Positions 8,897 through 60,130 of a DNA stretch of 60,130 bases are shown one piece after another. Under the pieces are notes generated by a model. It had not been told where the DNA came from and made no database searches. It saw only the letters and a program-made list of their open reading frames with translations. This DNA comes from a virus. Position 1 is the first letter of the stretch, and every line of letters starts with the position of its first letter. The stretch lies in the IMG/VR virus record IMGVR_UViG_3300006854_000005; one strand, 5' to 3'. The translations under genes were made by a program, and so were the position numbers.

Positions 8897-9982
8897 GTGG
8901 AAAACCTCGTCCAGCGTCTGATGTCGAGCCGCGCCGATTGGCTCGAGCACCTCGAGAACGACCTGCACATCTCGGTCGTGCGCGACGGCGACCTCGCCTC
9001 GCTCAAGTACAACCAGCTCGAGTCGCCGATGGCCGACCCGATGGTGCAGCAGTGCCGTGGCATGGTCGTCGACTGCGCGAAGCGGCGCGTGCTGGCGTGG
9101 CCGTACAACAAGTTCTTCAATCACGGCGAGCACCTCGCGACCCCGATCGACTGGGCGACCGCGCGTGTGCAGGAGAAGCTCGATGGGTCGCTGATGATCC
9201 TGCACGTGCGCGACTGCATCTGGTCGGTCGCGTCGAGCGGCCATCCGACAGCCGGTGGCTCCTTCGGAAGTGACGCTCGTACCTTTCGCGAGGCGTTCTG
9301 GAAGGTCATGAGCGACCAGGAGATCGACACCGACGAACTGGACGCGCGCGCCACGTACATGCTCGAGCTGTGCGACTCGCCGAACCGTGTCGTCGTCCGC
9401 CACGAGAAGCCACGCCTAGTACTGCATGGTGCCAGGTGGCTGGAGTCGGGCGAGGAGTTCCTTCCTAGCGCGCTTCACAACGCCGGCAACAGCGCGGGGC
9501 TCGAAGTCGTGAACGAATTCGGCATCGCTTCGATCGACCAGTGCCTGTCCGCCGCCGAGGCGCTCGACCCTCTCAAGCAAGAGGGGTTCGTCGTCGTCGA
9601 TGCCGAGTTCAACCGCGTCAAGATCAAGTCGCCGCGCTACGTCATCCTGCACCACCTCAAGGGTGAGGCAACCCCGCGGCGCGCGATCGAGCTGTGGCAG
9701 ACCGGCGAGACCGAGGAACTGCTCAACAGCTTCCCCGAGTTCAAGCCGGTCATCGAGCCGATTCAGGCGGACCTGGACCTGATCGCCGAGCAGTGCGTGA
9801 AGGACTTCGAGGAGAACATGCCGCGCGCGAGCCGCAAGGAGTTCGCGATGGCCGTGAAGGATCGGCCGTGGTCGTCGGTGCTGTTCAGGATGCTCGGCGA
9901 GGAGCGGCACGACGTGGAGACCGCGAAGGCGATCATGCGGCGCGGCTCGCTGCAGAGCCTGGAGAGGATGCTCGGGCGATGA
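8897..9982 (+). CDS. ATP-dependent RNA ligase (Rnl1/Trl1-like nucleotidyltransferase)
   Basis: 361 aa. Motifs: KFFNHGE, then motif I EKLDGS, motif III YMLELCDSPNRVV, motif IV EGFVVVD, motif V RVKIKSPRY. The GTG start could instead be the ATG at 8921. Confidence 0.8.
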   Translation: MENLVQRLMSSRADWLEHLENDLHISVVRDGDLASLKYNQLESPMADPMVQQCRGMVVDCAKRRVLAWPYNKFFNHGEHLATPIDWATARVQEKLDGSLMILHVRDCIWSVASSGHPTAGGSFGSDARTFREAFWKVMSDQEIDTDELDARATYMLELCDSPNRVVVRHEKPRLVLHGARWLESGEEFLPSALHNAGNSAGLEVVNEFGIASIDQCLSAAEALDPLKQEGFVVVDAEFNRVKIKSPRYVILHHLKGEATPRRAIELWQTGETEELLNSFPEFKPVIEPIQADLDLIAEQCVKDFEENMPRASRKEFAMAVKDRPWSSVLFRMLGEERHDVETAKAIMRRGSLQSLERMLGR

Positions 9983-32590: not shown

Positions 32591-33880
32591 GTGACCAACT
32601 TCGTCGACGACAACACCGCCCTGGACGCCGCGCTATACGCGGCGAAGACCGACATCAAGCCGGTCACGAACGCGACGAGGCAGATCACCGCGGCCGATCT
32701 CAATGCGATCAGGACCGCGCTCGACGACATCCGGACCGTGCTCCAGCGCGCTCCGGTGACCATCAAGGCGTTCGGTGCTGTCGGCGACGGAGTGACTGAC
32801 GATACGGCGGCGATTCAGGAGGCGCTTGACTACGCGGCGTCGCTGGGGTCGATCTCGAACGGCACGTTTCGCGGGTCCGAAGTGCTCATTCCGCGATCGA
32901 CGCGGCCGTACATGTTCAGCAACCTGCAACTCCCCGGCTACGTGTCGCTGGCCGGAGAGCAGATGGGGCACTGCGTTCTGCGGCGCATCACCGGCTCGAC
33001 GGGCAGCGCGATCCGCGAGCAGAACAGCACCGAGGACCCGAGTGGTGCCGGCGGCTCCGGGTCCTGGATTCGAAATCTCAGCCTCGATGGCAACGGCACC
33101 GCGGGCGATGGGATCAACCTCGGTGCGATCACGCAGCTCAACTTCCTGGCCGGCATCGAGAACGTGTTCGTATCCGGCTTCCCGTCGGGCTCCGGGTTCA
33201 AGCTCAACGCGAACGCGATCTCGTGCCGCTACCTGTGGGCCAACGGCAACCAGATCGGCGTCAACATCACCGGCGGTGGCGGCAATGGATGGTTCGGTAT
33301 CTGGGCCGAGAACAACACGCAGAACGACGTGGTGATCGGCAGCTCGGGGGACAACTTCTACCACATCCAGACCGAGCCTGGACCCGATGTCGAGACCACG
33401 CCGAGTATCCTCATCACCGGCGCAGACAATCACTTGTTCGGCGTGTACGTCGGGCTGCTCGCTAACCGGAACGAGATCATCCGGATCTCGACCGGCGCGA
33501 ACAGATGCGGAGTTCGCGGCGTCAGGATGGCAGCCAACGGCCACACCTTCACTCACCTCATCCTCAATGAAGCATATGCGCTCGGCACCGGGAACACCGT
33601 CACGGACGTCGACGAGTACGTGATGGGCGAGGCCACCGGCGCCGCATCCTTCTACATCAACCAGAGCACCGGGCAGGTCAACTCGACCATCGCGGATCTG
33701 GTGACGCTCGGTGGGGCGCTCAAGGGCGCGGGTACGCGCGCGGCAGCGCCGAGTACCGGGACCCATGTTGCCGGCGAAGTCGTGTTCAATGCTGACCCTA
33801 TCTCCGGTGGCTTCGCCGGATGGATCTGCGTTACCGGAGGAACCCCGGGGACATGGAAGTCGTTCGGGGCGATCTCATGA
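32591..33880 (+). CDS. tailspike / polysaccharide depolymerase with pectate-lyase-type beta-helix
   Basis: 429 aa. Hallmark IKAFGAVGDGVTDDTAAIQEALDYA followed by repetitive beta-helix-like segments. Confidence 0.65.
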   Translation: MTNFVDDNTALDAALYAAKTDIKPVTNATRQITAADLNAIRTALDDIRTVLQRAPVTIKAFGAVGDGVTDDTAAIQEALDYAASLGSISNGTFRGSEVLIPRSTRPYMFSNLQLPGYVSLAGEQMGHCVLRRITGSTGSAIREQNSTEDPSGAGGSGSWIRNLSLDGNGTAGDGINLGAITQLNFLAGIENVFVSGFPSGSGFKLNANAISCRYLWANGNQIGVNITGGGGNGWFGIWAENNTQNDVVIGSSGDNFYHIQTEPGPDVETTPSILITGADNHLFGVYVGLLANRNEIIRISTGANRCGVRGVRMAANGHTFTHLILNEAYALGTGNTVTDVDEYVMGEATGAASFYINQSTGQVNSTIADLVTLGGALKGAGTRAAAPSTGTHVAGEVVFNADPISGGFAGWICVTGGTPGTWKSFGAIS

Positions 33881-34575
33881 GCAGCCTTCCCGCATTCCTG
33901 CCTGCTCCTCTCGGAGGCGACACCATGAAGTCTCTCGCCGACATCATCTCGATCGTTCGCTTCCGGGGCGACATGCGGAGTTCCATCCGCTTCCCTGACG
34001 CGAACCTGACGACCGAGATCCAGGCGTCTTGGGCCGAGCTCTACCAGCTGATCGCGCAGACGAACCAGGGCTACTGGGACATCGTGAGCACGGTGTTCAC
34101 GATCGCCGGCGTGGACTATTCGCCGCTGCCCGACAGCACGTGGGTCGTCCGCAAGATCAGCCGGCTCGAGGGCACGTCGTACGTTCCGATGGACCAGATC
34201 GGCATCGACGAGATCGACAACTTCGCCCCGACCGGTCGACCCTACTGCTTCCGGCCCACCGAGCGCGGGGTCGACCTGTACCCGACACCGGACGCGGTCT
34301 ACACGCTGCGCTTTGTCACCACGCCGCTGGCGCCGCAGCTGAACGAGGCGCGCGAGTTCTTCAACGGATGGGAGGAGTTCGTCATCTACGGCGCGCTCAT
34401 CCGGCTCGCGGCGAACAGCGAGCGCGACATCACCGCGTGGGAGCGCCAGCTCGAGAAGGCGCGCGTCGTCATCACCGGTGGAGCGTCACAACGCAAGGCG
34501 CAGGAGCCCGACTACATCCCGATCCGCGAGACGTTCTACGACGCCCAGATCGGGCGCGACGAGAGGTGGCGCTGA
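33877..34575 (+). CDS. virion protein, 232 aa (adaptor / tail tubular A position)
   Basis: ATGA-coupled start. Function assigned by gene order only. Confidence 0.35.
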   Translation: MSSLPAFLPAPLGGDTMKSLADIISIVRFRGDMRSSIRFPDANLTTEIQASWAELYQLIAQTNQGYWDIVSTVFTIAGVDYSPLPDSTWVVRKISRLEGTSYVPMDQIGIDEIDNFAPTGRPYCFRPTERGVDLYPTPDAVYTLRFVTTPLAPQLNEAREFFNGWEEFVIYGALIRLAANSERDITAWERQLEKARVVITGGASQRKAQEPDYIPIRETFYDAQIGRDERWR

Positions 34576-35973: not shown

Positions 35974-36318
35974 TCATGGGGCTGCGTCGCAAGCCACTCG
36001 CGCGCCGTCGTCGCGGAGCACCGCAGCGCCGACCTGCAGGTCCGGCTCGAGAGCGTTGACCAGGTTCACCAGGATGATCTCCGGGCACGCGAACCTGGCC
36101 ACGGCAACGCTCAATTCCGTTCCGCCGTCAGCGACGTGCAAGGAGAGCGTCCTGGTCTCGCCGGCGGGACAAGAACCGGTGACGCGGATCTCCGACGCGT
36201 ACTTGTACCGCCAGATGGCCACGGCACACTGGTCCGCCTCGCTCGGGACCGGCGTGGCAGCCGAACCCTCCACGCATGAGAACAGAAGGACGCTCGACAG
36301 CAGCAGGATGGTCTTCAT
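35974..36318 (-). CDS. reverse-strand lipoprotein moron, 114 aa
   Basis: Track ORF 35974..36360 trimmed to MKTILLLSSVLLFSC (signal peptide plus lipobox-like LFSC). It is the only minus-strand gene inside the 42-kb rightward arm. The mature part has four more Cys. Confidence 0.5.
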   Translation of the reverse strand: MKTILLLSSVLLFSCVEGSAATPVPSEADQCAVAIWRYKYASEIRVTGSCPAGETRTLSLHVADGGTELSVAVARFACPEIILVNLVNALEPDLQVGAAVLRDDGARVACDAAP

Positions 36319-36386: not shown

Positions 36387-39300
36387 ATGGCGCTACGCCC
36401 TGCTGAGGTTCACGTCGGGTTCCGCGGCGGCGTATCTACGCGCGCCGACAGCAAAACCGTGCCACCGACGCAGCTGCTCGTGCTTGAGAACGGCGTTTTC
36501 TCCCGTGAGACGTCCATCCGCAAGCGCAACGGCTACGAGTCGCTCGCATCGGTGATCGACGGCTCGGCGTCCGTCCTGACCGGCGCGATTCGTACAGCCA
36601 CACGCGACAACGAGCTGATCGCGTTTACGTCGAACCGCGCCTACTCGCGCCAGACCGGAGCGGACCAGTGGAGCGACACCGGAGCGGTCTACAGCGTCGT
36701 CGGCAACGATCGGCCGCTCGTCAAGACCGGGACGCAGCAGCTGCAGCCAGACCATGCCACGCTCGGCTCCGTCACCGTCGCGGCATGGGAGGACTCCGCC
36801 GGCGGCGTGTGGTGGAACGTCGTCGATGCGGTGAGCGGGCGCATCTACCGCGCGGCAACGCAGGCCGATGCGCTCGGGCGGTCTCCTCGGTGCGTCACGT
36901 GTGGCCCCAACCTGCACATCTACTACGCCGTCCCGACGACGAACAGCGTGATGGCGATCGTCGTCAACCCGGCGGCCCCGGGCGCGGCGATAACGCCCGT
37001 CGTCCTCGTCTCTGACATGGACTTCACCCAGCCGATCTACGACGCGTGCGCGACTGCGCGATCCGGGACGCCGGCGGCGATCGCATGGTTCGAGGCCGGA
37101 ACGACCGCGGTTCGAATCGGCTACGTCGATGCGTCGGGCACGCTCGGGTCGCCAATCCTCGGGCACCCATCCGTGTTCACGTTCGCCGCGGCGCGTGACG
37201 CGACCTCCCCGCTGGGTCTCGCCTTCGAGGACAATGATGACCCAGGCTCCGGTCTCTTCGGGATCGCCTACATCTCAGGCGGCGCGTCCAAAGTGGCGAT
37301 GTTCGGCGCAGGGACCGTCTCACCGGCGGACCCGATTGCGCAAGTCGGCTCAACGAAAACCGGGCCGGCGGTGGTCAGCATCGTACGAGTCACCTTGGCT
37401 CTGACCAACGTCGTCGCGATCACGGCATGGGAGGAGGACGCAGCCGACCCGTCGAACGCGTCGGTGATCATCGCCCGGGTCAGCTTGAACTCCGGTCTGG
37501 TCTCGAGCTTCACGGTCCGCTCGGTCGGGATCGTCGCCCGCGCCTTCCTGATCGGCGGCTCCTCGCTGACCAGCAGCGCCTTTGTCACGCTCGTCCACGA
37601 CACGACGTTCTTCAACGTCTACGTGACGCTCCGAATGAGCGACGGGGTCTGCGTTGCGCGACTGGCCCCGGGCGCCGCGGCTGGGCTCCCCGGACGCCAG
37701 CACCTCGCGTCGGCGCCGCTCGACGGTGACTCCGTGTCCATCTCCCTCCCTTTCCGCGAGCGCCTCGTCTCCGAAAACAACGATAAGTTCCGCGAGACCG
37801 GGATCCGGCTGTTCACGCTCGACTTCGACAGCGAGGACTCGCACCAGTACGCGCAACTCGGCCGCGGGCTCTACCTCGCCGGTGCGTGTCCGCAGCACTA
37901 CGACGGGCGCCAGTGGACCGAACAAGGCTTCCACGTCGGGCCCGAGCTGATCGCGACGGTCTCCGCCGGCGGCGGGTCGATGACGTCGGCCGTGACGTAC
38001 CTCTACCGCGCCTGGTACGAGCGAACCGACTTCCAGGGCGAGGTGCATCGCGGCCCCGTCAGCATCGGCACGCTCGTCACGATGGGCGGCGCCGACACGC
38101 AGGTCACGCTGACGCTGCCGACGCTGCGCATCACCCAGGGCACGAACACGCGGGTCTGCGTGGCCCGCTCGCTCGCGTCAGACACCGGTGACACCGCCGA
38201 ACTGTTCCGCGTTACCTCGCTCGACCCGACCACCGCGGGCACGGCGAACGGCTACGTCGCGAACGATGCGACCGTCGACACCGTGTCGTTCATCGACCGG
38301 ATGAGCGACGCCGCTCTCCGTACCCAGGAGCCGCTCTACACCAACGGCGGCCTGCTCAGCAACGACCCGTCGGCGCTCGGCGCAGTCGTGTTTCGCGGGC
38401 AGTCGCGGCTGTTCTTTACCGACCCGTCGAACGGGCTGAACCTGCGCTACTCGCAGCCGCTCGACGATGGCTACGGCGTCGAGATCCCGCCGGACCTCGT
38501 GCTCTCGGTCGACCCGTTCGGCGGCGACATCACGGCCGGCGCGTTCCAGGACGGACGCGGCGTGATCTGGAAGGCGGGTTCCATCTTCCTGTTCCAGGGC
38601 GACGGGCCCGCGCCGAACGGCGACACCTCGACGGGTGGCTTCTCGACGCCGCAGCTCATCACGTCGGACGTCGGTTGCACCGACCCATCGTCGATCGTCC
38701 TGACGCCGAACGGCCACATGTTCAAGTCGGCGAAGGGCATCTACCTGTTAGCCCGCGACGGCTCGGTTTCGTACGTGGGCGCCCCGGTCGAGGCGTACAA
38801 CGCCCAGACGGTGCGGCGCGCGACGGTGATGCCGGACCGCACGCAGATCGTGTTCCTGACCGACAGCGGCCTCTCGCTGCTGTTCGACCACTACCACACG
38901 CAGTGGTCGACTTTCACGAACCACGAGGGGCTCGACGCCGCGGTGGTCAACGGCCGGTACCACTACCTGCGCACCGACGGTCGCGTGTTCCGCGAGACGC
39001 CGGGGGTGTACCTCGACGACAACGCGCGGATTCGACTGCGGCTCGAGACGGCATGGATCCACATGCTGCCGCAGCTGCAGGGCTTCCAACGCTTCTGGCA
39101 CTTGCACCTCCTCGGCACGTGGGTCTCGCCGCACCAGCTGGGTATCCAGTACCAGACCGACTACACGCCGGGCTGGACGGACAGCTACTGGTACGACGCG
39201 ACGGGCCTCACCGACGACACCGGCTGGATCACCGGCGGCAACGCGGCGCCCATCGGCGTCGAGTCGATCGTCGGGTCGCCCTACGGTGATGGGAACTACG

Positions 39301-39506
39301 GCGACGGTCAGTACGGCGGCTCGGCGTCGGGCCCCTACCAGTGGCGGCTCCACCTCGACGAGGCGGGCCAGTCGATTCAGTTCCGCTTCGAGGACTTCGA
39401 GGCGGAGGGCCACGCGGGTGCGTCGTTCGAGCTGACTGAGATGTTGCTCACCGGCGGAGTCAAGGCGCACGCCATCAAACCATTCACCTCGTCGAGGAGC
39501 CTGTAA
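36387..39506 (+). CDS. large tail protein, 1039 aa (tail tubular B / nozzle position)
   Basis: Track ORF with GAGGTG upstream. Assigned by size and by its position before three internal-virion-protein-like genes. Confidence 0.4.
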   Translation: MALRPAEVHVGFRGGVSTRADSKTVPPTQLLVLENGVFSRETSIRKRNGYESLASVIDGSASVLTGAIRTATRDNELIAFTSNRAYSRQTGADQWSDTGAVYSVVGNDRPLVKTGTQQLQPDHATLGSVTVAAWEDSAGGVWWNVVDAVSGRIYRAATQADALGRSPRCVTCGPNLHIYYAVPTTNSVMAIVVNPAAPGAAITPVVLVSDMDFTQPIYDACATARSGTPAAIAWFEAGTTAVRIGYVDASGTLGSPILGHPSVFTFAAARDATSPLGLAFEDNDDPGSGLFGIAYISGGASKVAMFGAGTVSPADPIAQVGSTKTGPAVVSIVRVTLALTNVVAITAWEEDAADPSNASVIIARVSLNSGLVSSFTVRSVGIVARAFLIGGSSLTSSAFVTLVHDTTFFNVYVTLRMSDGVCVARLAPGAAAGLPGRQHLASAPLDGDSVSISLPFRERLVSENNDKFRETGIRLFTLDFDSEDSHQYAQLGRGLYLAGACPQHYDGRQWTEQGFHVGPELIATVSAGGGSMTSAVTYLYRAWYERTDFQGEVHRGPVSIGTLVTMGGADTQVTLTLPTLRITQGTNTRVCVARSLASDTGDTAELFRVTSLDPTTAGTANGYVANDATVDTVSFIDRMSDAALRTQEPLYTNGGLLSNDPSALGAVVFRGQSRLFFTDPSNGLNLRYSQPLDDGYGVEIPPDLVLSVDPFGGDITAGAFQDGRGVIWKAGSIFLFQGDGPAPNGDTSTGGFSTPQLITSDVGCTDPSSIVLTPNGHMFKSAKGIYLLARDGSVSYVGAPVEAYNAQTVRRATVMPDRTQIVFLTDSGLSLLFDHYHTQWSTFTNHEGLDAAVVNGRYHYLRTDGRVFRETPGVYLDDNARIRLRLETAWIHMLPQLQGFQRFWHLHLLGTWVSPHQLGIQYQTDYTPGWTDSYWYDATGLTDDTGWITGGNAAPIGVESIVGSPYGDGNYGDGQYGGSASGPYQWRLHLDEAGQSIQFRFEDFEAEGHAGASFELTEMLLTGGVKAHAIKPFTSSRSL

Positions 39507-40498
39507 TGGGATTCTGGGACATTGCAAAGCGAGTCGGTCTGGGCGTCGCGACGGGCGGCATCTCCGAGGCTGGGGGCGCACGTCCGATCATCGACGCTGC
39601 AGCAGGGTCGGACTACACGAAGAACCTCCTGTTCGGCGGCAAGGCGACCGCGGGCGTCGACGCGAAGCTCGGGCACTACGATCAGGCCACGAATCAGCTG
39701 GGCCAGATCGCCCAGAACGCCCAGGGGCGCGCGGCACCGACGGCGGCCGCGACGATGGCAGGGCGCACCCAACTCGGCGCCCCTGCACAGCTCGCGACCG
39801 GCCAGATGGACCAGTCGCGAGGCGGGATGCTCGGCGTTGCGAACAGGCTCGGTGGCATCGCGAGCGGGCAGCAGGCAGGCGCCGGCGAGCTCGCGGTGAA
39901 CCGCCAACTCGGGCAGGCGAACGCCGCGCAGCAGGCCGCCGCAAGGATGGCGCGGGGCGCAAACGCGGCGCTCGCGTACCGCAACGCTGCGCGCAACAGC
40001 GCAGACCTCGGGCTCCAGGGCGCAGGGCTTGCGGCGGGCGCGCAGATGCAGGACCAGCAGGCCGCAAACGCCCAGCTCGGCCAGCTCTACGGCGGCATGT
40101 ATGGCCAGGACGCGAACGTCGCTGCGCAAAATGCGCAGCTCGGCCAGCAGGCAATTCTCCAGCAAGGCGCAATGGACCAGCAGACGACGCTGGCCAACGC
40201 GCAGGCCGGAAACACGGTCGCGCTCGCGAACCTGCAGGCCCAGCTCGCGCAGAGCGGGATGAACGACCAGCAGCAGCTGGCGGCGCTCGGGCAGATGCTC
40301 GGCTGGGATCAGGCGACGCTTCAGGCCCAGCTGGCGAAGGCCCAGATCGCCGCGAACGACAAGGGCATCCTCCCCGGGCTGCTCCAGATGGGCGGTCAGA
40401 TTGGCGCGGCGTACGCGACCGGTGGGATGTCCGCAGCGGCGCCGCGCGCAGCAGCCCCACCGGGCGGCGCGCTCGGTGGAAGCAACTGGGGGCCGTAG
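39506..40498 (+). CDS. internal virion / ejection protein-like, Gln/Ala/Gly-rich, 330 aa
   Basis: Low-complexity QAGNA repeats. TAATG-coupled start. T7 gp14-like position. Confidence 0.4.
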   Translation: MGFWDIAKRVGLGVATGGISEAGGARPIIDAAAGSDYTKNLLFGGKATAGVDAKLGHYDQATNQLGQIAQNAQGRAAPTAAATMAGRTQLGAPAQLATGQMDQSRGGMLGVANRLGGIASGQQAGAGELAVNRQLGQANAAQQAAARMARGANAALAYRNAARNSADLGLQGAGLAAGAQMQDQQAANAQLGQLYGGMYGQDANVAAQNAQLGQQAILQQGAMDQQTTLANAQAGNTVALANLQAQLAQSGMNDQQQLAALGQMLGWDQATLQAQLAKAQIAANDKGILPGLLQMGGQIGAAYATGGMSAAAPRAAAPPGGALGGSNWGP

Positions 40499-40504
40499 CG
40501 AGCC

Positions 40505-43135
40505 ATGGCGCTCTTTGGCGACAGCATGGTCGATGTCACCACGCCCGACGGGCGGCGCATCACCGTGCCGCAGCAGCTGGCGCAGGCCTTCCCGGGTCTG
40601 CAGCCGTACGCGCCTCCGCCCGAGGTCGCGCAGCCGCCGGCGCTGCCCGTTGCGCCCCCACCGCCGACGTTCACGCCACAGGACCAGCAGGACCTCGGCA
40701 AGCTGACTGCCGCACCTCCGCCCGACGCATCCGGCGCGCCCGTGACGATGCCGAGCCAGTCGCCACCGCAGGGCCCAGGGGGACCGCGCGGACCGGTCGC
40801 GACCCCCGCGCAGGCGACCGATGCGGGACGGCCGAACACGCCGGGCCCGATGACGAACGACCAGCTGGCGAAGATCGGGACGGCAGGCGCCTACAACGCG
40901 TCGGTCACGGCGCAGCAGGGCGAGCGCGCCGCGGTCCAGCGTCAGGGCGAGGCCCTCGCAAACCAGGCGACGGCGGTCGGCAAGGTCATGGAGGCCGCGG
41001 ATCGGCATGCCGACGAGCTGCTCGCCGAGCGCGCGAGAGTCGCCCAGGAGAACGCCGCGGCGCTGCAGGCCAAGACGGAGGAGTACCAGCGCAACGCCAA
41101 GGCCGTCGCGGACACCAAGATCGATCGCAGCGTCGACCACCCGGTGCTCGCGGCTCTGAGCTCGGCGCTCATCGGCATCGGGCAGGCGATGGCTGGACAG
41201 CCGATCGACGCGATGGGCGCGGTCTACAAGGCCATCGATCGCAAGGTCGCGGCCCAGATGCAGGACCTCGATCAGAAGCGCGCCAACCTCGGACTCCAGC
41301 GGGATGCGCTTGGGATGCAGCGGGAAGCTGGGCGCGACCGACTCGCCGAGATGGATACACTGCGGCTCGGCTACATCGAGCAGGCCAAGCGGCAGGTCGA
41401 GACGATCAAGCAGCAGACCACGAGCGACGTGGTGCGCGCGAATGCGGACGTGGCGCTCGCGAATCTCGACCAGAAGGCAGCCGACACGCTCGGCACTGCG
41501 GTTCATCGCGAGCAGCAGAAGCGCGAGGCCGAGGCGAACCGCAAGCAGCAGCTTCTGATGCATCAGCAGACCGTCGGCGTGCAGATCCGCGGGCAGAACC
41601 TCGAGCAGAAGCGGTTCGAGAGTCAGTTGGAGTTCCAGAAGCAGAAGGAGATCGACGAGGTCGCGACGAAGATCGCCACGGCGAAGGGCCTGCAGAAGAG
41701 TGAGGTCGAGAAGAAGATCGCCGAACAGGGCGTCGTCGACCCTTCGACCGGCAGCCTGATCCTGACGCCCGAGGGCCAGAAGAAGTTCGCCGATGCCGAG
41801 AAGGCCGAGGCCGCGGCGCGCGCCGCGAAGGATCCAGCGCAGGCGCAGAAGCTGAACGAGTACGCCGGTCAGCTGCGGGACAGCGCGCGCATCAATGATG
41901 TCGCGTTCGGCGTCAACAAGGAGAGCGCGCAAGAGGCGATGAAGGTTCTGAAGAACACACAGAACCTTACGAACGACATCGACACCGCGAAGCAGATGCT
42001 CGAGAAGGGGCCCGACGCGTGGAACCGCGAGGAGTGGGCGCAGCTCAAGGTCGGGTTGCAGAACGTCAAGATCAACTACGCCACGACCATCGGCGAACGA
42101 CTCTCGGTGCGCGCGCTCGAGGCACTGGACGACGTGCTCAGCGTGGACACCGACAGCATCTTCTCGCGCTCCGTCGACAAGGGCAAGGCGCTCGCTGCGC
42201 TCAAGACGCTCAACGCCGAGCTGATCCAGAAGGGCAACGTGGCGCTTCGGGGCGCAGGCATCAAGACGACGTGGAGTCCAGCGACGGCCGTCAAGGCAGA
42301 GCAACTCGGCAGCGAGAAGACGGCGCAGGAACTGTCCGAGGACGCGCGTCCCGGGGCACTCACTCGGGCCGCTGAGCACATCCTGCGCCCGTTCGGTAGC
42401 GGCGCCGACGAGCGCATTCAGGCCCCACAGGACGCCGCTCTCGAGGAAGCCAACGCGCGCCGCAGTGCGCCCAGTAAGGCATTCCCGGAGGGGCGGACGT
42501 CCGACTACGGACTCGCTCCGGATACCGACGAGAAGATCCGCGCGCTCGTCTCTCAGTCCGCCAAGGTCGGGCACGAGAAGTACGCCGACATCATCGGCAA
42601 GCTGAGGGCGCCGCTGGAAGGTGACCGTCCATCACTGGCGATCGGCGTCGCCAAGCTGATCCGAGACACGGACCCAAAGCTGTTCGCCGACATCATGTCT
42701 TCGTTGCCCGAGGCGACGCGCAACGAGATTGCGCAGTCGATCGCGCCGCCGCAGCTGAGCGGGCCGTACACGCAGCGCACGACCGATAGCCTGTCGCCCG
42801 AGGAGCGCGCGCAGCTCGAGGAGCAGCGCCGGCAGCGAACGACCGAGGCGGAGCGAGCCAGGTATCGCGCCGCCTACGACGAGCGCGCCGCCAAGGGAGC
42901 GCGCGGAGTTCCAGGGTCTGCCCCAAACCCGAGGGCGGAGGGTGAGCGAAAGCAAGATAGCGATCGTTTCTGGGACTCGCAGATGCGCGCCTCCGATGCC
43001 GAGTGGAGGGCCAAGGTCCAGAACTTGATGTCCACCAAGGGCCTCTCGTTTCAAGAGGCGGTCAACGAAATCGGGAACGTCAGCGACTTCTGGGATCAGA
43101 GAGAGAGAGCCAGGCTCGCTCGGGGTGGACACTAG
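40505..43135 (+). CDS. internal virion / ejection protein-like, coiled-coil, 876 aa
   Basis: Pro-rich N-terminus followed by long coiled-coil stretches. T7 gp15-like position. Confidence 0.4.
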   Translation: MALFGDSMVDVTTPDGRRITVPQQLAQAFPGLQPYAPPPEVAQPPALPVAPPPPTFTPQDQQDLGKLTAAPPPDASGAPVTMPSQSPPQGPGGPRGPVATPAQATDAGRPNTPGPMTNDQLAKIGTAGAYNASVTAQQGERAAVQRQGEALANQATAVGKVMEAADRHADELLAERARVAQENAAALQAKTEEYQRNAKAVADTKIDRSVDHPVLAALSSALIGIGQAMAGQPIDAMGAVYKAIDRKVAAQMQDLDQKRANLGLQRDALGMQREAGRDRLAEMDTLRLGYIEQAKRQVETIKQQTTSDVVRANADVALANLDQKAADTLGTAVHREQQKREAEANRKQQLLMHQQTVGVQIRGQNLEQKRFESQLEFQKQKEIDEVATKIATAKGLQKSEVEKKIAEQGVVDPSTGSLILTPEGQKKFADAEKAEAAARAAKDPAQAQKLNEYAGQLRDSARINDVAFGVNKESAQEAMKVLKNTQNLTNDIDTAKQMLEKGPDAWNREEWAQLKVGLQNVKINYATTIGERLSVRALEALDDVLSVDTDSIFSRSVDKGKALAALKTLNAELIQKGNVALRGAGIKTTWSPATAVKAEQLGSEKTAQELSEDARPGALTRAAEHILRPFGSGADERIQAPQDAALEEANARRSAPSKAFPEGRTSDYGLAPDTDEKIRALVSQSAKVGHEKYADIIGKLRAPLEGDRPSLAIGVAKLIRDTDPKLFADIMSSLPEATRNEIAQSIAPPQLSGPYTQRTTDSLSPEERAQLEEQRRQRTTEAERARYRAAYDERAAKGARGVPGSAPNPRAEGERKQDSDRFWDSQMRASDAEWRAKVQNLMSTKGLSFQEAVNEIGNVSDFWDQRERARLARGGH

Positions 43136-46100
43136 ATGCCGCTACTTCGCTCACCCAGCGGCGCCGTCATCGACGTTCCGGCCGAGCAGGTCGGCAACTA
43201 CGTCGGGTACGAGCCGGTCGAGGGCGCTGACGCGTCACGCGCGATTGCCGCACCTGAGTCACCCGATCGCGGCGTGCTCGGTGGCATCAACGCCGCGGCG
43301 ACCGGAATCCTCAGCGGCGCCACGCTCGGCCTGTCCGACTACGCGCTCAAGGGCCTGCTCGACAAGGGCGAGTTCGAGCGCCTCGCCTCAGAGCGCGAAG
43401 GTCATCCTGTCGCGAGCGGCATCGGACAGGTCGCGGGCGCAATTCTGCCGGCCGTCGCCGCACCCGGGTCGCTGCTCGGCAGCGCACCGTCTGGTCTCGT
43501 CTCGCACGCGCTCGCGCCGATGGTTGCCGAGGGCCGCGCGATCGGCGGCGCCGCGGGCGTCGGCCGGGTGCTCGCCGCGGGCGGTATCGAGGGCGCGGTC
43601 CAGAACGCCGGAATGTACCTGTCCGACACGGCGCTCGGCGACCGCGAGCTGTCGGCGGAGGGGTTGGCCGCATCGCTCGGGCCGGGGTTCGCGTTCGGCG
43701 TTGCCGGCGGCGCTGCGGCGCTCGGGATCGAGCATGGGACGATCGCAGCGCGGCGCCTGTTCTCGCGGGTCGGTGCCGCTGACAAGGCTGCGCTCGAGGC
43801 CGAATCGGCGTGGCAGGCGGCGCATCAGTCGACGCTCGAGGCGAATGACGCCGCGGCGGATATGGCGCGTGCGCGGCTGGCCGAGACGCGCGCCGCGCGC
43901 GAGCAGGCTCAGCTGGCCAAGCAGCGCGCGAAGCTGCGGGTGGTCGAGACCGAGCAGGCCGCGCCGCAGATCGACGCGACGTACAAGGCTGCATCGGTCG
44001 AGCGCGAGCAGGTCAGGGACGCGGCCAAGGCGGCATATGAGCAGGCCGCAACCCCGCCCGCTCAGCCCATCACGCCCCGCCTGCACGAGGGCCTCCGTGG
44101 CATGGGGCTCACCGACGCCGAGATCTCCGCCATGTCGCCGGCCGACCTCGCCGAGGCAACCCGGCTCATCGAGGGCGCCGACGCGGAGCTCGCGGCGATG
44201 CAGGGTGCCCGTCCACCCCTGCCCGAGGCGAAGGCCGCCGAGCTCGAGCAGGCCGTCGCGGAGCACGACGCCGCGCGCGCCGAGCTGGACGACATGCTGC
44301 GCCACCTCGAGGCGCCCGACATCGGCCCGGGTATCGCACCGCCATCGCGCGAGGTCCCGATCGGGGAGTTCGGGGCGCCTGGGCAGCGCGGCTACGACCC
44401 GGGCAACGTCAAGGCGCCAGGCCCGCCGTCGGTCGTCGAGGCACAGACCGTCGATGTCACCGCGGTCGGCAAGAGGAAGTTCGGGCAGGGCACACCGGCC
44501 GAAGGTGCCACGTTGGGCGGTCCGGTCGAGCGTACGCAGGCGCCGAGCGGTCGGGTTCTATCAGAAGGCGAGTTCCGCGAGCGGCAGCGGGCACTCCGAG
44601 CATCGCTTTCCGAGGGCGAGATCAAGCAATCCTTGCAGTACACTCGCGAAGACTACAACGACATCAACCGGTTCCTGCGCGGCGATAAACGCGTGCCCAA
44701 ACTCGGCGATCGCGAGGCCGAGATCATCCCCGCGCTGGATGCGATCATCGATCGATCGGTCCTCGGCGAGCCGATCGTGACCTACCGTGCGGCGCACTTT
44801 GACCCGCACGAAGTCGCGTTCGGTCTGAAACCAGGAGGCGTGTTCGAGGAGCCGGCATTCATGTCGACCTCGTATCGCCAGCACAATATCGGGCGGTTCG
44901 GAAACGTGGATTTCGTGATCACGTCTCCCGTGGGTACTCGAATAGCCCCGATACCGTCGTCGGCATCCGAGGGTGAGTTTCTCCTGCCACGCGGAACACG
45001 GCTGAGAATCACCAACAGGGTAGAGCACCCCGGAGTTGACGAGTTCGGACATCGCCACGTGACGCTCCACGCGACCGTTGAGCCCACCGCCGCGAAGGTC
45101 GCCCCGGCAGCCACCGACACCCTCACCGGCCAGATGCGCGCGATGCAGTCGCGTCTCGGGGCGGGCGAAGACCTCAAGGCGATGGGTGGATCGTCGCGCG
45201 CGGAGTACGCCGCAGCGAAGGCCGAGCGTACCGCGGCGGCAGCGGAGCACTTCCGGGGCGAGGCGATCGCGCGGCATGAGGTGCCCGAGTACGGCGCCCT
45301 GAAGTCGCAACTCGACAAGGCCGGTACCGACTACGTCGAGCAGTCTATTCCGGCCAGCAAGATCGCCGAGCGGGGCTACTACGAGCCGCCCGGTGGCGGG
45401 GCCGACGAGGTCAAGGCGGGCAAGGCCAAAGCGGCAATCGCAGAGGGACAGCGCGAGCCCATCACGCTAAACGTGACGCCGAGCGGGAAGATCGTCGTCG
45501 ACGATGGACGGCATCGGCTCGCGGCAGCGATCGATGCGGACGTCCCGGTCAAGGTGAAGTGGTCGACCGGATACGAGCCGAGCGCGGACATGGTGCGCCG
45601 CACTTCACCGTCCGATCCGTTCTTCGCCGACCTCACGCGCCCAAAGACGCGCGACGCGTACGTCGCGGCGAATATCGGCAGGGCGATGCGCGAAGAGGGG
45701 TCGCACGCTGCGGCGCTGACCAAGGTCGAGCGCGAGTGGGCGGACATGGGGGGTGCGCCGTCCGCGCGGACGGCTCAGCAGGAGGCACCGCAGACGTGGC
45801 GCGAGTTCACGGCCGGCAAGATTGGCGAGTACATGAAGTCCGAGGGCGGCCACGCGGGCGCGATGAAGCGGTTGGGCCAGGAGTGGCAAGAGATCAAGGC
45901 CGGAGGATCTGCGCGCGGTGTAGTCGCCCCAGCCGCAGCACAGAACGCCGTCGAGGACGTCGCGGCAGCTGCCGAGGTCGTCACCAAGTACGAGCGCGCG
46001 TCGGCCAAGCTGACCGATGTGCTCGGCCCAGAGGCACCGCCAGCGGCGCAGGAAGCGGCCAAGGCGTTCCGCGCGGCCGAGGATCACGCCGAGCGCAAGC

Positions 46101-47482
46101 AGATGGCTCGCACGACGCGCGCGATCGATGACAGCGTCGATTCGCAAGGTCGGCCGCGGACCGTGCTCGATGAGGGCCGCAAGAAGTCCGAGGCGAAGAT
46201 GGCGGCTGGGTCGACCGAACGCGAGGCGCGAGGCGCGCAACAGGCCGCTGCAGCCCCCGCGCGTCCGTCGTGGGAGCAGCTCGAGCAGCGCTACGGCAAG
46301 TACACTGGCCAGCCCGCGCTACCTCCGACGTCAGCGGAGGCACTTGCGGCGGCGAAGTCCGAGCATGGGGCTGCCGACGTCGCGCTCCAGCGCGCCAAGA
46401 TCGCCGAGACCGAGGCGGGGATCGGGTCGCGCGGCGCCGATGAGGACGCGACACAGGCCCGGGCCGCTGCAGAGGCCGCCCGCCCGCTGCCGGCGCCGCC
46501 GCCCTCGCCCTCAACGCTCGGCTCGATCGCCACGGCCATCGGGATCGCTGGTGAGGTCGGCATTCCAGGCGTGCCGCACCCGAAGGACATCCCGGTGATC
46601 GGCCCGCTGCTATCGATGTACCTCAAGTACAAGGCGCTGAAGTACGCCACCGGCCGCATGGTCGGCCGCGTCTCGGCCACCGGCGATGCGCGCGCGGCGG
46701 CGCTGGTCACGCGGACCAAGGAGAAGATCGCCGTCGCGGTCGACCGGACGCTCGGTCTCGTGGAGGCCGGCGCGAGCAGGGGGCGAGGCGGTATCGTCGC
46801 GGCGGCCACGGTGCTCGGTCATCGGGTATTCGACGACGGTGAGCCGGACGCCCCGACGGGCGCCAACGCGCAGCAGCTGGCAGCGGTGCGGATCCGCGAG
46901 ATCGCCAACGCGTCGACGCGGCCCGATCTGGTGTCCGCGCTGGTGCGCAAGGAGATGCGCGGCGTGGTCGACCCGGACCTCATCGAGGCGGCCGAGAAGC
47001 ACCTGACGGCCCGGTTCGAGGCGCTCGCCAAGGTCATGCCCAAGGCGCCACCGCCGAACCCCTACTCGAAGCGCGAGTGGCTCCCCTCGCCGGCCGCGGC
47101 GTACGAACTGTCGCAACGCCTCGCCGTCGTCCACGACCCGGAGCAGGCGTTCATCGACCCGACGCCAGCGAAGGCGCAGACCGCCGCGGCGGTCTACCCG
47201 AAGCTGCTCCAGTACGCGCAGCAGCGGCTCATGGACCGCATCGGCGACACGAGCAAGCCGGTCCCGTACGAGCAGCGACTCCGCGGGTCCCTCGTGTTCA
47301 AGGTTCCGCTCGACGATTCGCTGCAGCCAGATCATGCCGCGATCCTGGCGACCGCGCACGCACCGTCGCCGATCACCGATCCAGCGGCGCCGCAGCCCCA
47401 AGCGCCAGCGCCGTCCATCGCAGCCAACACCAACCTGACGTCCGTCTACCAGACGGGCACTGAACGACGAGCCATGAGGTGA
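43136..47482 (+). CDS. giant internal virion (gp16-position) polyvalent protein with ADP-ribosyltransferase and ParB-like domains, 1448 aa
   Basis: Gly-rich hydrophobic N-terminal segments. ART motifs: YTREDYNDINRFLRG (aa 502-516), R551, STS (aa 577-579), EGE-FLLPRG (E612/E614). ParB/Srx motif VVDDGRHRLAAAI (aa 787-799). Confidence 0.7.
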   Translation: MPLLRSPSGAVIDVPAEQVGNYVGYEPVEGADASRAIAAPESPDRGVLGGINAAATGILSGATLGLSDYALKGLLDKGEFERLASEREGHPVASGIGQVAGAILPAVAAPGSLLGSAPSGLVSHALAPMVAEGRAIGGAAGVGRVLAAGGIEGAVQNAGMYLSDTALGDRELSAEGLAASLGPGFAFGVAGGAAALGIEHGTIAARRLFSRVGAADKAALEAESAWQAAHQSTLEANDAAADMARARLAETRAAREQAQLAKQRAKLRVVETEQAAPQIDATYKAASVEREQVRDAAKAAYEQAATPPAQPITPRLHEGLRGMGLTDAEISAMSPADLAEATRLIEGADAELAAMQGARPPLPEAKAAELEQAVAEHDAARAELDDMLRHLEAPDIGPGIAPPSREVPIGEFGAPGQRGYDPGNVKAPGPPSVVEAQTVDVTAVGKRKFGQGTPAEGATLGGPVERTQAPSGRVLSEGEFRERQRALRASLSEGEIKQSLQYTREDYNDINRFLRGDKRVPKLGDREAEIIPALDAIIDRSVLGEPIVTYRAAHFDPHEVAFGLKPGGVFEEPAFMSTSYRQHNIGRFGNVDFVITSPVGTRIAPIPSSASEGEFLLPRGTRLRITNRVEHPGVDEFGHRHVTLHATVEPTAAKVAPAATDTLTGQMRAMQSRLGAGEDLKAMGGSSRAEYAAAKAERTAAAAEHFRGEAIARHEVPEYGALKSQLDKAGTDYVEQSIPASKIAERGYYEPPGGGADEVKAGKAKAAIAEGQREPITLNVTPSGKIVVDDGRHRLAAAIDADVPVKVKWSTGYEPSADMVRRTSPSDPFFADLTRPKTRDAYVAANIGRAMREEGSHAAALTKVEREWADMGGAPSARTAQQEAPQTWREFTAGKIGEYMKSEGGHAGAMKRLGQEWQEIKAGGSARGVVAPAAAQNAVEDVAAAAEVVTKYERASAKLTDVLGPEAPPAAQEAAKAFRAAEDHAERKQMARTTRAIDDSVDSQGRPRTVLDEGRKKSEAKMAAGSTEREARGAQQAAAAPARPSWEQLEQRYGKYTGQPALPPTSAEALAAAKSEHGAADVALQRAKIAETEAGIGSRGADEDATQARAAAEAARPLPAPPPSPSTLGSIATAIGIAGEVGIPGVPHPKDIPVIGPLLSMYLKYKALKYATGRMVGRVSATGDARAAALVTRTKEKIAVAVDRTLGLVEAGASRGRGGIVAAATVLGHRVFDDGEPDAPTGANAQQLAAVRIREIANASTRPDLVSALVRKEMRGVVDPDLIEAAEKHLTARFEALAKVMPKAPPPNPYSKREWLPSPAAAYELSQRLAVVHDPEQAFIDPTPAKAQTAAAVYPKLLQYAQQRLMDRIGDTSKPVPYEQRLRGSLVFKVPLDDSLQPDHAAILATAHAPSPITDPAAPQPQAPAPSIAANTNLTSVYQTGTERRAMR

Positions 47483-56858: not shown

Positions 56859-57917
56859 TCAACCCCCTTTCTTCGCCCCGCCTTCCAGCACCTTCCACGC
56901 TCGCCTCCTGGCCGCATCCTCCGCCTGCCGCCTGTCGATGTACGCGCCACCGTCCGTCATGCCTGTGCTGGCATGCCCGAGTGCCGCAGCAACCGTCTCG
57001 CTGTGGCTGCCCTGGACCTTGCCTATCGTGGCTGACGTCCCACGCAGACCGTGCGGTCCCACCTCGGGCACGCCGGCGAGTTTGCACAGGCGCCAGACCT
57101 GTTCCCTCGCCCAGTCCTGCGGGCGAGCTCGCGTGGCCGCGTGCGCGAACAGGGGCTCGTCCGCAGCGCGGTCAGCGGCCAGCCTGAGCAGCCCTGGACG
57201 CAGCACGGCCGGCACCTCCGCCTGGCGCCGCCCGGCCTCGGTCTTCGAGTCCGGGATCCAGAACATCCGCCCGTCGTCGTCCACGTCGCGCACACGAGCG
57301 AGTACAACCTCACCGTTGCGGCTGCCGAGCAGCAGGTAAGCAAGCGTGCAGACCGCGCCGTCATCGGTGGCGAGTCGCGCGGCGCAGACGTCGATCACCT
57401 TGCGACTCTCCTCGATCCGGAGCTGCGGCTTGCCCTTCTTACGCCGACCGCGACCCTTCACCTTGGCGAACGGGTTGACCGGCAGCCATCCGCGCTCGGT
57501 GCACCAGACGCCGAACGCCCTGCACGTCGACAGCGCGTTGCGGTGCGTGTCGACCGCGCCGGTGCGCGCGTCGTAGAGCTGCGCTGCTAGCTTCGGGGTG
57601 AGTCGCTTCAGGTCTAGCATCCCGTTCGTCTCGAGCGAGAGCAGCTGACGCAGGTGGTAGCGCTGCCGCTCCACTGTTGATGTGCGGAGCTCTCCCTCGC
57701 TCACCCGCCTCTCCTGGCTCGCGAGGAACGCGGCGACCGCGACGTCGATCGTTCGTGTCTCGGCGTTCTTGCGGAACGCGGCGATGAAGTCGTTCGCTTG
57801 GCGCTCGCTCTCAAAGTAGCGAGAGTCTCGAGAGCCATCCGCTCCGACGCAGATAACTCGCCAACTACCGGCCGAGACGTGGAATGGTCCGTGGCAGCGC
57901 TCGTGTCGTTGTCGCAT
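56859..57917 (-). CDS. int: tyrosine integrase (phage integrase family)
   Basis: 352 aa. Catalytic pattern: LLLGSRNGEV (Arg), HGLRGTSAT (H-x-x-R), LGHASTGMTDGGAYIDR (His...Tyr). Confidence 0.85.
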   Translation of the reverse strand: MRQRHERCHGPFHVSAGSWRVICVGADGSRDSRYFESERQANDFIAAFRKNAETRTIDVAVAAFLASQERRVSEGELRTSTVERQRYHLRQLLSLETNGMLDLKRLTPKLAAQLYDARTGAVDTHRNALSTCRAFGVWCTERGWLPVNPFAKVKGRGRRKKGKPQLRIEESRKVIDVCAARLATDDGAVCTLAYLLLGSRNGEVVLARVRDVDDDGRMFWIPDSKTEAGRRQAEVPAVLRPGLLRLAADRAADEPLFAHAATRARPQDWAREQVWRLCKLAGVPEVGPHGLRGTSATIGKVQGSHSETVAAALGHASTGMTDGGAYIDRRQAEDAARRRAWKVLEGGAKKGG

Positions 57918-59786: not shown

Positions 59787-60088
59787 CTCGCTCTCCTTCC
59801 TCTCGGTACCGGATCCATGTCCGGCACCGTCGGTGCTGTCACGTAGTACCCACTCGCCGGCATCAAGCTCCTCGGCACGTTCGGTGTCGTCACGTCGCCA
59901 GCCTTGCTCAGCACCTCTCGCCCCGCATCGGTCACGACCCATAGCTTGCGACCGCGATCGTCGGTGTCGCGCCACTCGGCGAGACCGTGGCGGGCGAAGA
60001 ACTTGAGCTGTGCGCGCTGGACGAGCACATGCTGACCGGCCGCGACGAGACGGAGGCCGGCAATCTGGTGCGGGTGGAGTGGTGTCAC
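59783..60088 (-). CDS. hypothetical winged-helix-like protein, 101 aa
   Basis: Track ORF. Its GTG start lies inside the terminal repeat and overlaps the stop of the 25..516 gene in the circular form. Confidence 0.5.
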   Translation of the reverse strand: MTPLHPHQIAGLRLVAAGQHVLVQRAQLKFFARHGLAEWRDTDDRGRKLWVVTDAGREVLSKAGDVTTPNVPRSLMPASGYYVTAPTVPDMDPVPRGRRAR

Positions 60089-60130
60089 TTGCGGTCTCCT
60101 TGGAACAGCGGACCGTGGTCTCGGTAGACG
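60061..60130. repeat. Terminal direct repeat, copy 2
   Basis: Identical to nt 1-70. Confidence 0.95.

Follow-up and report, generated by a model that had tools for sequence, protein, structure and literature searches.

We identified an ADP-ribosyltransferase (ART) domain of the R-S-E type as an optional internal insert in a 1448-amino-acid (aa) protein encoded by the virus record IMGVR_UViG_3300006854_000005 (60,130 nucleotides (nt); hereafter the window, meaning the whole stretch of DNA that was analysed). This protein, referred to here as the carrier, is encoded on the + strand within a late structural operon. We consider it probable that the carrier is a virion-borne polyvalent effector which delivers an arginine-specific mono-ADP-ribosyltransferase at infection, in a manner resembling T4 Alt. 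The reading builds on established features, namely the identity of the domain, the conservation of its catalytic residues, purifying selection, a modular architecture in which inserts have recently been exchanged, and the late-operon position of the gene. The carrier gene and the elements of its ART domain are as follows.

43136-47482 (+): carrier protein gene, 1448 aa (polyvalent, putative ejection or internal virion protein; open reading frame (ORF) with 87 homologues)
44558-45085 (+): R-S-E ADP-ribosyltransferase domain, aa 475-650 (Pfam, PDB profile matches, and dN/dS; Pfam envelope aa 487-639, 44594-45052)
44639-44683 (+): helical motif YTREDYNDINRFLRG, aa 502-516, with N511, L514, and R515 nearly invariant
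44786-44788 (+): catalytic Arg551, the "R" of R-S-E, in TYRAAH, aa 549-554 (string search, alignment)
44864-44872 (+): Ser577-Thr578-Ser579, the STS motif, in FMSTSY, aa 575-580 (string search, alignment)
44969-44977 (+): Glu612-Gly-Glu614, the E-x-E of the ADP-ribosylating toxin turn-turn (ARTT) loop for substrate recognition, in SEGEFLLPRGT, aa 611-621 (string search)

A sequence-only reading of the window had placed an R-S-E ART domain at 44558-45080, which in frame +1 corresponds to carrier residues 475-648. Comparison with hidden Markov models (HMMs) of ADP-ribosyltransferase families and with solved structures bears this out, at a level well above what chance would give. PF03496 (ADPrib_exo_Tox), the sole Pfam family matching the carrier protein, scored 46.2 bits (E 4.4e-12) over the entire protein and 53.7 bits (E 2.2e-14) over the 174-aa segment, with a gathering cutoff of 23.4 in both cases. 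As a single sequence, the domain matched R-S-E ARTs in the PDB at modest significance (Lmo0066, E 1.2e-5; Tre1, an effector of type VI secretion systems (T6SS), 1e-4; Vip2, 6e-3). For a family profile, 43 ART domains were collected from 37 of 88 family members and 20 diverse ones were aligned (alignment A4). This profile recovered 48 PDB sequences at E <= 0.01, with Vip2 the best match (8.7e-25), and further matches including Lmo0066, CdtA, C3stau, iota Ia, C3larvin, Vis, ExoT, Certhrax, C3bot, SpvB, Tre1, C2-I, ExoS, and HopU1. String searches found YTREDYNDINRFLRG, R551, S577-T578-S579, and E612/E614 at precisely the residue numbers that the earlier reading had assigned to them. The aromatic residue that precedes the catalytic arginine in this family is present as Y550-R551, and the [Q/E]-x-E of the ARTT loop as E612-G-E614. 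In every sequence feature that could be tested, the domain is thus an R-S-E, C2/C3-like ART.

Conservation of the catalytic residues extends across a highly divergent set of copies. Most ARTs in A4 share only 24-30% identity with the window's copy, and R551, G567, S577, P598, E614, and L617 are invariant in all 20, with N511, L514, R515, T578, and E612 conserved in at least 90%. Among the 43 family ARTs, which fall into at least 15 clusters, R551 and S577 are each kept in 42, E614 in 41, E612 in 38, T578 in 37, and S579 in 35; the complete R-S-E triad is intact in 41. The closest relative, on contig L019, differs from the window's domain by few substitutions (nonsynonymous rate dN 0.005, synonymous rate dS 0.078), and the resulting dN/dS of 0.065 is the lowest of any carrier region, compared with 0.10-0.16 for the scaffolds described below. 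Residue conservation and purifying selection together argue for an active enzyme. The earlier reading had taken the intact residues as an argument for activity; the residues are intact as claimed, and their invariance together with the low dN/dS lends indirect support to an apparently active domain.

One family ART carries Q-x-E and two have lost residues of the R-S-E triad (P0011, aa 556-731; P0010, aa 701-880; P0017, aa 469-614). The Q-x-E copy may use a different acceptor residue, and the two degenerate copies may be decayed or repurposed domains.

In C2/C3-type toxins, the presence of E-x-E versus Q-x-E in the ARTT loop predicts an arginine acceptor, as exemplified by the Q-to-E specificity switch in C3. 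Because the carrier domain has E-x-E instead of Q-x-E, its predicted acceptor is arginine.

The sequence-only reading had overlooked two aspects of the surrounding protein: the ART domain is an optional internal insert in a modular carrier, and a second domain of ParB/sulfiredoxin (Srx) type follows it. The remaining parts of the carrier are as follows.

43136-43885 (+): conserved N-terminal scaffold, aa 1-250 (homologue coverage), with Gly/Ala-rich hydrophobic stretches at aa ~45-200
43886-44545 (+): Ala/Glu/Lys/Arg-rich linker region, aa 251-470, found in about half of the homologues
45320-45610 (+): predicted ParB/sulfiredoxin-fold domain, aa 729-825, with the motif D790-G-R-H-R794 (AF2 model and Foldseek)
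45644-45910 (+): a ~37-aa helical motif present twice in tandem, at aa 837-875 and 886-925 (..Y/F.A..IG..M..EG.HA.A......EW.....GG)
46508-47479 (+): conserved C-terminal scaffold, aa 1125-1448, all-helical, opening with a Gly/Ile/Pro-rich hydrophobic segment

Homologue coverage reaches about 70-83 of 87 over aa 1-250 and 1125-1448 and drops to about 21-40 of 87 between them. Domain-wise HMMs recovered both scaffolds in nearly all homologues, with the ART and the second domain being optional, reordered, and sometimes duplicated. Both scaffolds start with Gly-rich hydrophobic stretches, with hydrophobic peaks at aa 91-117 in the N scaffold, and the linkers reach up to 70% A+E+K+R+Q per 50-aa block. 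Family proteins range in length from 826 to 2122 aa, and the inserts of relatives include NUDIX (63 bits) and GNAT (22.5 bits) domains as well as two ARTs of different subtypes in one protein. Stretches related to the ~37-aa motif recur in most family members (the "mid3" region).

The distribution of payloads was assessed in a census that pooled the first 88 homologues with the 150 top-ranking representatives from a whole-library search, which yielded 178 proteins with both scaffolds. ART was found in 51 of these full-length proteins, ParB/Srx in 73, both in 22, and neither in 76, with a median length of 1600 aa with ART versus 1106 aa without. Co-occurrence in 22 proteins, against ~21 expected by chance (51 x 73 / 178), indicates that the two domains are independent payloads. 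This modularity is also seen in the sister phage L019, whose carrier (P0002, 6001-11199) has scaffolds 95-96% identical and an ART 99% identical to those of the window. The same protein has a 179-aa insertion after aa 467, ahead of the ART, and its ParB/Srx region (aa ~716-830) has been swapped for unrelated sequence with 28% identity; Pfam gave no match in these new pieces. Near-identical scaffolds with different inserts imply recent insert exchange.

Assignment of the second domain depends chiefly on its modelled fold. The AF2 model of aa 729-825 was of moderate quality (pLDDT 72), and the best 50 Foldseek matches listed from the PDB all belonged to the ParB/Srx superfamily. Sulfiredoxin 1xw3 was the top match (E 3.5e-4, TM 0.58), followed by SbnI, Noc, ParB, KorB, and PadC, with a serine kinase also among them; the listed matches had TM values of 0.5-0.6 and probabilities of about 1.0 for the leading ones and 0.75-1.00 overall. 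Within the DGRHR motif, G791 and R794 are conserved in at least 90% of copies. Sequence support was weak (phrog_1033, E 1e-3), and no Pfam ParB_N match rose above threshold, the best being E 0.069 in one of 21 members, with DndB at 0.077 in four of 21. Matches of the ParB/Srx profile to NHL-repeat sequences in the PDB were judged spurious, so that the fold search alone was informative. The model therefore supports a ParB/sulfiredoxin superfamily fold for aa 729-825, a superfamily marked by an alpha/beta fold whose pocket contains a conserved Gly/Arg motif. Together with the ART it gives the carrier two unrelated effector domains in one polypeptide, the hallmark of a polyvalent protein.

The C scaffold (~320 aa) represents a large unannotated phage protein family that, by sequence searches, is abundant in metagenomes. 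Among the 50%-identity cluster representatives of a 1.84-billion-protein library, 9167 matched at E <= 1e-3, 6285 at 1e-10, and 519 at 1e-30, with the reservation that Ala/Pro-rich composition may inflate some of the weakest matches. In the matches listed, the scaffold lies almost always at the C-terminus of a protein of 900-2100 aa. Its model is all-helical (pLDDT 70), and it has no counterpart in Pfam, PHROG, NCBIfam, PDB (by sequence or Foldseek), or BFVD. A homologue search with the C-scaffold profile returned only three fragments and was uninformative.

The genomic setting of the carrier gene resembles that of ejection proteins in short-tailed phages. The large terminase gene and the genes for the P22-like portal, major head protein, and pectate-lyase-fold tailspike share one + strand module, from 23.9 kb to 51 kb, with the following genes.

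33853-34575 (+): SU10-type head-to-tail adaptor gene (PF24175, 45.6 bits against a cutoff of 27)
36387-43135 (+): three large ORFs 5' of the carrier (1039, 330, and 876 aa), candidate ejection or internal proteins (conserved synteny)

Judged by its SU10-type adaptor, the block belongs to a podovirus-like tail module. Four large ORFs, of 1039, 330, 876, and 1448 aa, follow the adaptor and tail genes, the carrier being the last of them, and the terminase, portal, head, tailspike, and adaptor genes all lie upstream on the same strand, so that the carrier is encoded among late and virion genes as polyvalent proteins are. The ORF has the codon signature of a coding frame (GC3 0.84 versus GC2 0.54, in a genome of 66.7% GC). 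Its ATG directly abuts the stop codon of the 876-aa gene upstream and only 4 nt separate its stop from the start of the following gene; the carrier gene is translationally coupled within the late structural operon. A block of genes for proteins of ~1040, ~300, 650-876, and 950-1780 aa, followed by a gene for one of ~155 aa, is syntenic in L001, L002, L004, L005, and L019. Besides the window, four contigs carry the block with the ~155-aa gene, and two of these four encode ART-free versions of the carrier. The three large upstream ORFs had no PHROG, Pfam, NCBIfam, or meaningful PDB sequence match, the PDB comparison covering neighbours of 1039, 348, and 876 aa, and NCBIfam returned nothing for the carrier or five neighbouring genes. 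Position and size make the four ORFs a candidate set of ejection or internal proteins. The carrier gene lies in a contiguous block beside tail genes, as would be expected of a podovirus ejection gene. For a run of consecutively numbered ejection-protein genes, the precedent is gp20-24 of SU10, whose products sit in the head of the virion and leave it when the genome is released (PMC9509320).

The window begins and ends with the same 70 nt (nt 1-70 and 60061-60130), indicating a circularly closed, complete genome of ~60,060 bp, and the identical 1448-aa protein also occurs on a 60,201-bp metagenome contig. The phage is temperate and equipped with replication and repair genes of its own, namely those for a tyrosine integrase (56859-57917, - strand), a DnaB-type helicase, a YqaJ recombinase, and an RNA ligase of the T4 Rnl1 type. 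In tblastn comparison with the 50,697 phage records of INPHARED, no match was found for the whole carrier, its N-terminus, the portal, or two distant family members. The ART segment alone gave three weak matches at 30-32% identity, one of them labelled "minor capsid component".

We hypothesize that the N and C scaffolds would act as a structural chassis by which the protein enters the particle and leaves by way of the tail, and that the flexible Ala/Glu/Lys/Arg-rich linkers would hold optional enzyme inserts, here the ART and ParB/Srx domains. As do the ejection proteins of SU10, T7, and P22, the carrier would pass out of the head along with the DNA at infection, and the ART domain would then meet the NAD+-containing cytoplasm. 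There it would mono-ADP-ribosylate host proteins on arginine ahead of all phage gene expression, a modification that might aid take-over or disable a defence, as in the role of T4 Alt. Packaging, ejection, catalytic activity, arginine specificity, and the target are the predicted parts of this scheme. Delivery of the enzyme with the DNA had also been put forward in the sequence-only reading; it agrees with the coupled late gene, the conserved block, and the polyvalent architecture, all of them arguments from gene context. A broader proposal, which we regard as possible but somewhat short of an even chance, is that the N and C scaffolds mark out a family of podovirus ejection proteins, very large and hitherto undescribed, that serves as a general delivery chassis. 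Its enzyme inserts (R-S-E ARTs, ParB/Srx, NUDIX, and GNAT) would be exchanged between near-identical phages and injected into the cytoplasm of the host ahead of the genome, a phage counterpart of polymorphic toxins with the payload in mid-protein and without an immunity gene.

Several considerations weigh against delivery in the virion. Neither the scaffolds nor the three neighbouring proteins showed a sequence or fold link to proven ejection or internal virion proteins in PHROGs, Pfam, NCBIfam, PDB, Foldseek PDB, or BFVD, the fold search having covered the C scaffold. INPHARED holds no related cultured phage whose virion proteome could be borrowed. A folded internal domain would also have to be unfolded for passage through the tail channel and fold again afterwards, which is plausible by analogy with T7 gp16. 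Finally, a search of Pfam matches and the gene neighbourhood for an antidote (ADP-ribosylhydrolase, macro domain, or small ART-linked gene) found none, leaving the tolerance of the producing cell unexplained, unless it is irrelevant late in lysis.

The same lack of homology to known virion proteins, together with the positional nature of the packaging evidence, would suit a late intracellular effector that is not packaged and acts only in the producing cell, either in host shut-off or by modifying phage or host proteins during assembly. T4 ModA and ModB, for example, ADP-ribosylate after infection inside the cell. We find this explanation unlikely: the gene is translationally coupled inside a structural operon, Gly-rich hydrophobic scaffolds across thousands of clusters are hard to reconcile with a soluble enzyme, and family members without an enzyme, ~830-1000 aa long, are common, with 76 of 178 lacking both ART and ParB/Srx. 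The last point implies a core function that is not enzymatic and thus points to a structural role. A slightly less likely alternative concerns the substrate, with the ART modifying DNA or RNA or merely hydrolysing NAD+, perhaps jointly with the ParB/Srx domain only 80 residues away. Among R-S-E enzymes, the pierisin/ScARP group does target guanine and T4 ModB attaches NAD-capped RNA, and ParB/Srx domains elsewhere bind or nick DNA or hydrolyse nucleoside triphosphates. These precedents are joined by the prediction that ParB domains of polyvalent proteins are DNases (PMC5512222). Joint action fits poorly with the independent occurrence of the two domains in the census and with their variable order and spacing, L019 having kept the ART while replacing the ParB/Srx region. 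Moreover, the closest solved relatives are all protein-modifying toxins, mostly arginine-specific, and the motif is E-x-E, not Q-x-E.

Two further explanations concern the carrier as a whole. It could be a phage-borne polymorphic toxin of the MuF-ART or Bxa kind, released at lysis or carried on particles against competitors or eukaryotic cells to the benefit of the lysogen. The temperate lifestyle indicated by the integrase (56859-57917) and circular assembly, the variable and exchangeable toxin domains, and a best PHROG match to MuF-ART fusions (phrog_595) are consistent with such a toxin. That match, however, involves the ART only (aa 491-631 against profile positions 354-501 of 513), no MuF domain is present, and the toxin domain is internal rather than C-terminal. 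Nor was an ART-linked immunity gene seen: the ~155-aa downstream gene also accompanies ART-free relatives, and no hydrolase or immunity family was matched in Pfam, although an unrecognisable immunity gene is possible. We therefore judge a toxin of this kind improbable. Least likely, with very little to recommend it, is a tape-measure-like or other tail structural protein of a long-tailed phage with the ART as decoration. Like many tape-measure proteins, the carrier is a long helical protein that is rich in Ala/Glu and has Gly-rich hydrophobic segments, but no tape-measure, tail-tube, or sheath family was matched in the module, the P22-like portal and SU10-type adaptor are types found in short-tailed phages, and four consecutive large ORFs fit an ejection set and not one tape measure. 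Both the tape-measure protein and the MuF toxin were accordingly considered and rejected.

Returning to the virion-borne effector, its ART shares with the C2/C3-like R-S-E enzymes (Vip2, iota Ia, CdtA, C3, SpvB, Tre1, and Lmo0066) a common family profile, the aromatic-Arg pair, the STS and E-x-E motifs, and the N-terminal Y..IN..LR helix. Identity to solved members is low, with single-sequence E values of 1e-5 to 1e-2. Those enzymes are secreted exotoxins or effectors of type III secretion systems (T3SS) or T6SS, whereas the window's ART is an internal insert in a phage late protein.

T4 Alt is packaged in the head, injected with the DNA, and modifies the alpha subunit of RNA polymerase. The window's ART resembles it in belonging to the broad Alt/VIP2 R-S-E clade (PMC9503650), in being encoded by a phage late gene, and in its proposed arrival with the genome and arginine modification. 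In contrast to Alt, a dedicated single-enzyme myovirus protein packaged via the T4 prohead core, the window's ART is one optional insert in a modular, putatively packaged carrier of a podovirus-like phage. The analogy with Alt drawn by the sequence-only reading thus holds as a functional one, with weak similarity in sequence: the "Alt-like" phrog_802 match is partial (E 6.2e-4, 19.5 bits, aa 500-592, 93 residues). As this 19.5-bit match is the only link, we do not file the domain as an Alt-family member.

The carrier resembles polyvalent proteins (Iyer et al. 2017, PMC5512222) in combining unrelated enzymatic domains, in lying beside virion genes, and in its predicted injection. The ARTs in that survey belong to the H-Y-D "Tox-ART-HYD2" clade, and Alt-family ARTs are stated to be absent from genuine polyvalent proteins; the R-S-E type found here is a departure from the survey but does not touch a core criterion of the class. 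A zincin-like metallopeptidase (MPTase) is frequent in polyvalent proteins (PMC5512222). Pfam detected no MPTase, MuF, or N4-type RNA polymerase module in the carrier, and its scaffolds, unlike the polyvalent proteins of that survey, match no described domain.

Alt/VIP2 ARTs have been reported in a later survey mainly as MuF fusions (PMC9503650), and both MuF-fused phage polymorphic toxins (Jamet et al. 2017, PMC5576092) and Bxa (PMC11699363) offer parallels, with an ART of the same clade fused to a protein of the phage morphogenesis module, exchangeable toxin domains, and a temperate phage. In MuF toxins, the SPP1 gp7-like MuF domain is N-terminal, the toxin C-terminal, and the immunity gene adjacent, whereas the carrier has no MuF match, an internal toxin domain, and no immunity or ADP-ribosylhydrolase gene that we could find.

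Ejection proteins of short-tailed phages (SU10 gp20-24, T7 gp14-16, and P22 gp7/16/20) are likewise encoded by contiguous large genes, which in the window lie behind the tail and adaptor genes, and have hydrophobic segments suiting membrane insertion. T7 gp16 contains a transglycosylase domain. SU10 gp20 does as well, setting a precedent for an enzyme domain within an ejection protein (PMC9509320). The carrier has no detectable sequence or fold homology to the SU10, T7, or P22 proteins, and its inserts would act in the cytoplasm and not on the cell wall.

Because they act before phage gene expression, enzymes delivered along with the genome are prime candidates for disabling defences or seizing host machinery. 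T4 Alt is the textbook case of a genome-delivered enzyme, and MuF-fused toxins are poorly understood. The locus described here extends this theme to a podovirus-like temperate phage of an uncultivated lineage, with an R-S-E ART in a polyvalent protein and a carrier scaffold that is unannotated yet abundant. The finding is not categorically new, as polyvalent proteins and head-packaged ARTs are already established (PMC5512222, PMC9503650); set against these surveys, an R-S-E ART inserted internally into an unannotated scaffold that lacks MuF represents a new version of a known strategy. Its interest lies in the carrier family, the abundance of that family, the exchange of inserts, and the range of ART subtypes. 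Two phages that are ~95% identical yet differ by a clean swap of inserts amount to a natural experiment separating chassis from payload, and the at least 15 divergent ART subtypes are a panel for comparing host targets.

Scans of genome collections for the host range of the family gave three metagenome-assembled genome (MAG) loci only (Kofleriaceae, Gemmatimonadaceae, and a weak Lachnospiraceae match). Scaffold matches among GTDB representative genomes were limited to L006 (Kofleriaceae MAG) and L007 (Gemmatimonadaceae MAG), both contigs. The Kofleriaceae and Gemmatimonadaceae matches weakly hint at a soil-type, high-GC host, with the caveat that binning of phage contigs into MAGs is unreliable.

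Other genes of the window merit brief mention. The T4 Rnl1-type RNA ligase at 8897-9982 (+) matches PF09511 with 63 bits; Rnl1-type ligases have a tRNA-repair-type function often tied to countering host anticodon nucleases. A 114-aa ORF at 35974-36318 (-) lies on the opposite strand within the + strand module and starts with MKTILLLSSVLLFSC, a signal peptide and lipobox that predict a lipoprotein. The equivalent slot in L001 (2819-3256, -) holds an unrelated lipoprotein (MTRAMLVLAMVTGC) and that in L004 an unrelated + strand ORF. The slot looks like a variable accessory-gene ("moron") site, possibly for superinfection exclusion. The tailspike at 32591-33880 (+) has a pectate-lyase-like fold (PF12708), and the match to many tail-fibre PHROGs, at their C-termini, is far better for its final ~45 residues than for the remainder (phrog_21471, E 1.4e-16). 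This C-terminus may be a shared module, such as an intramolecular chaperone.

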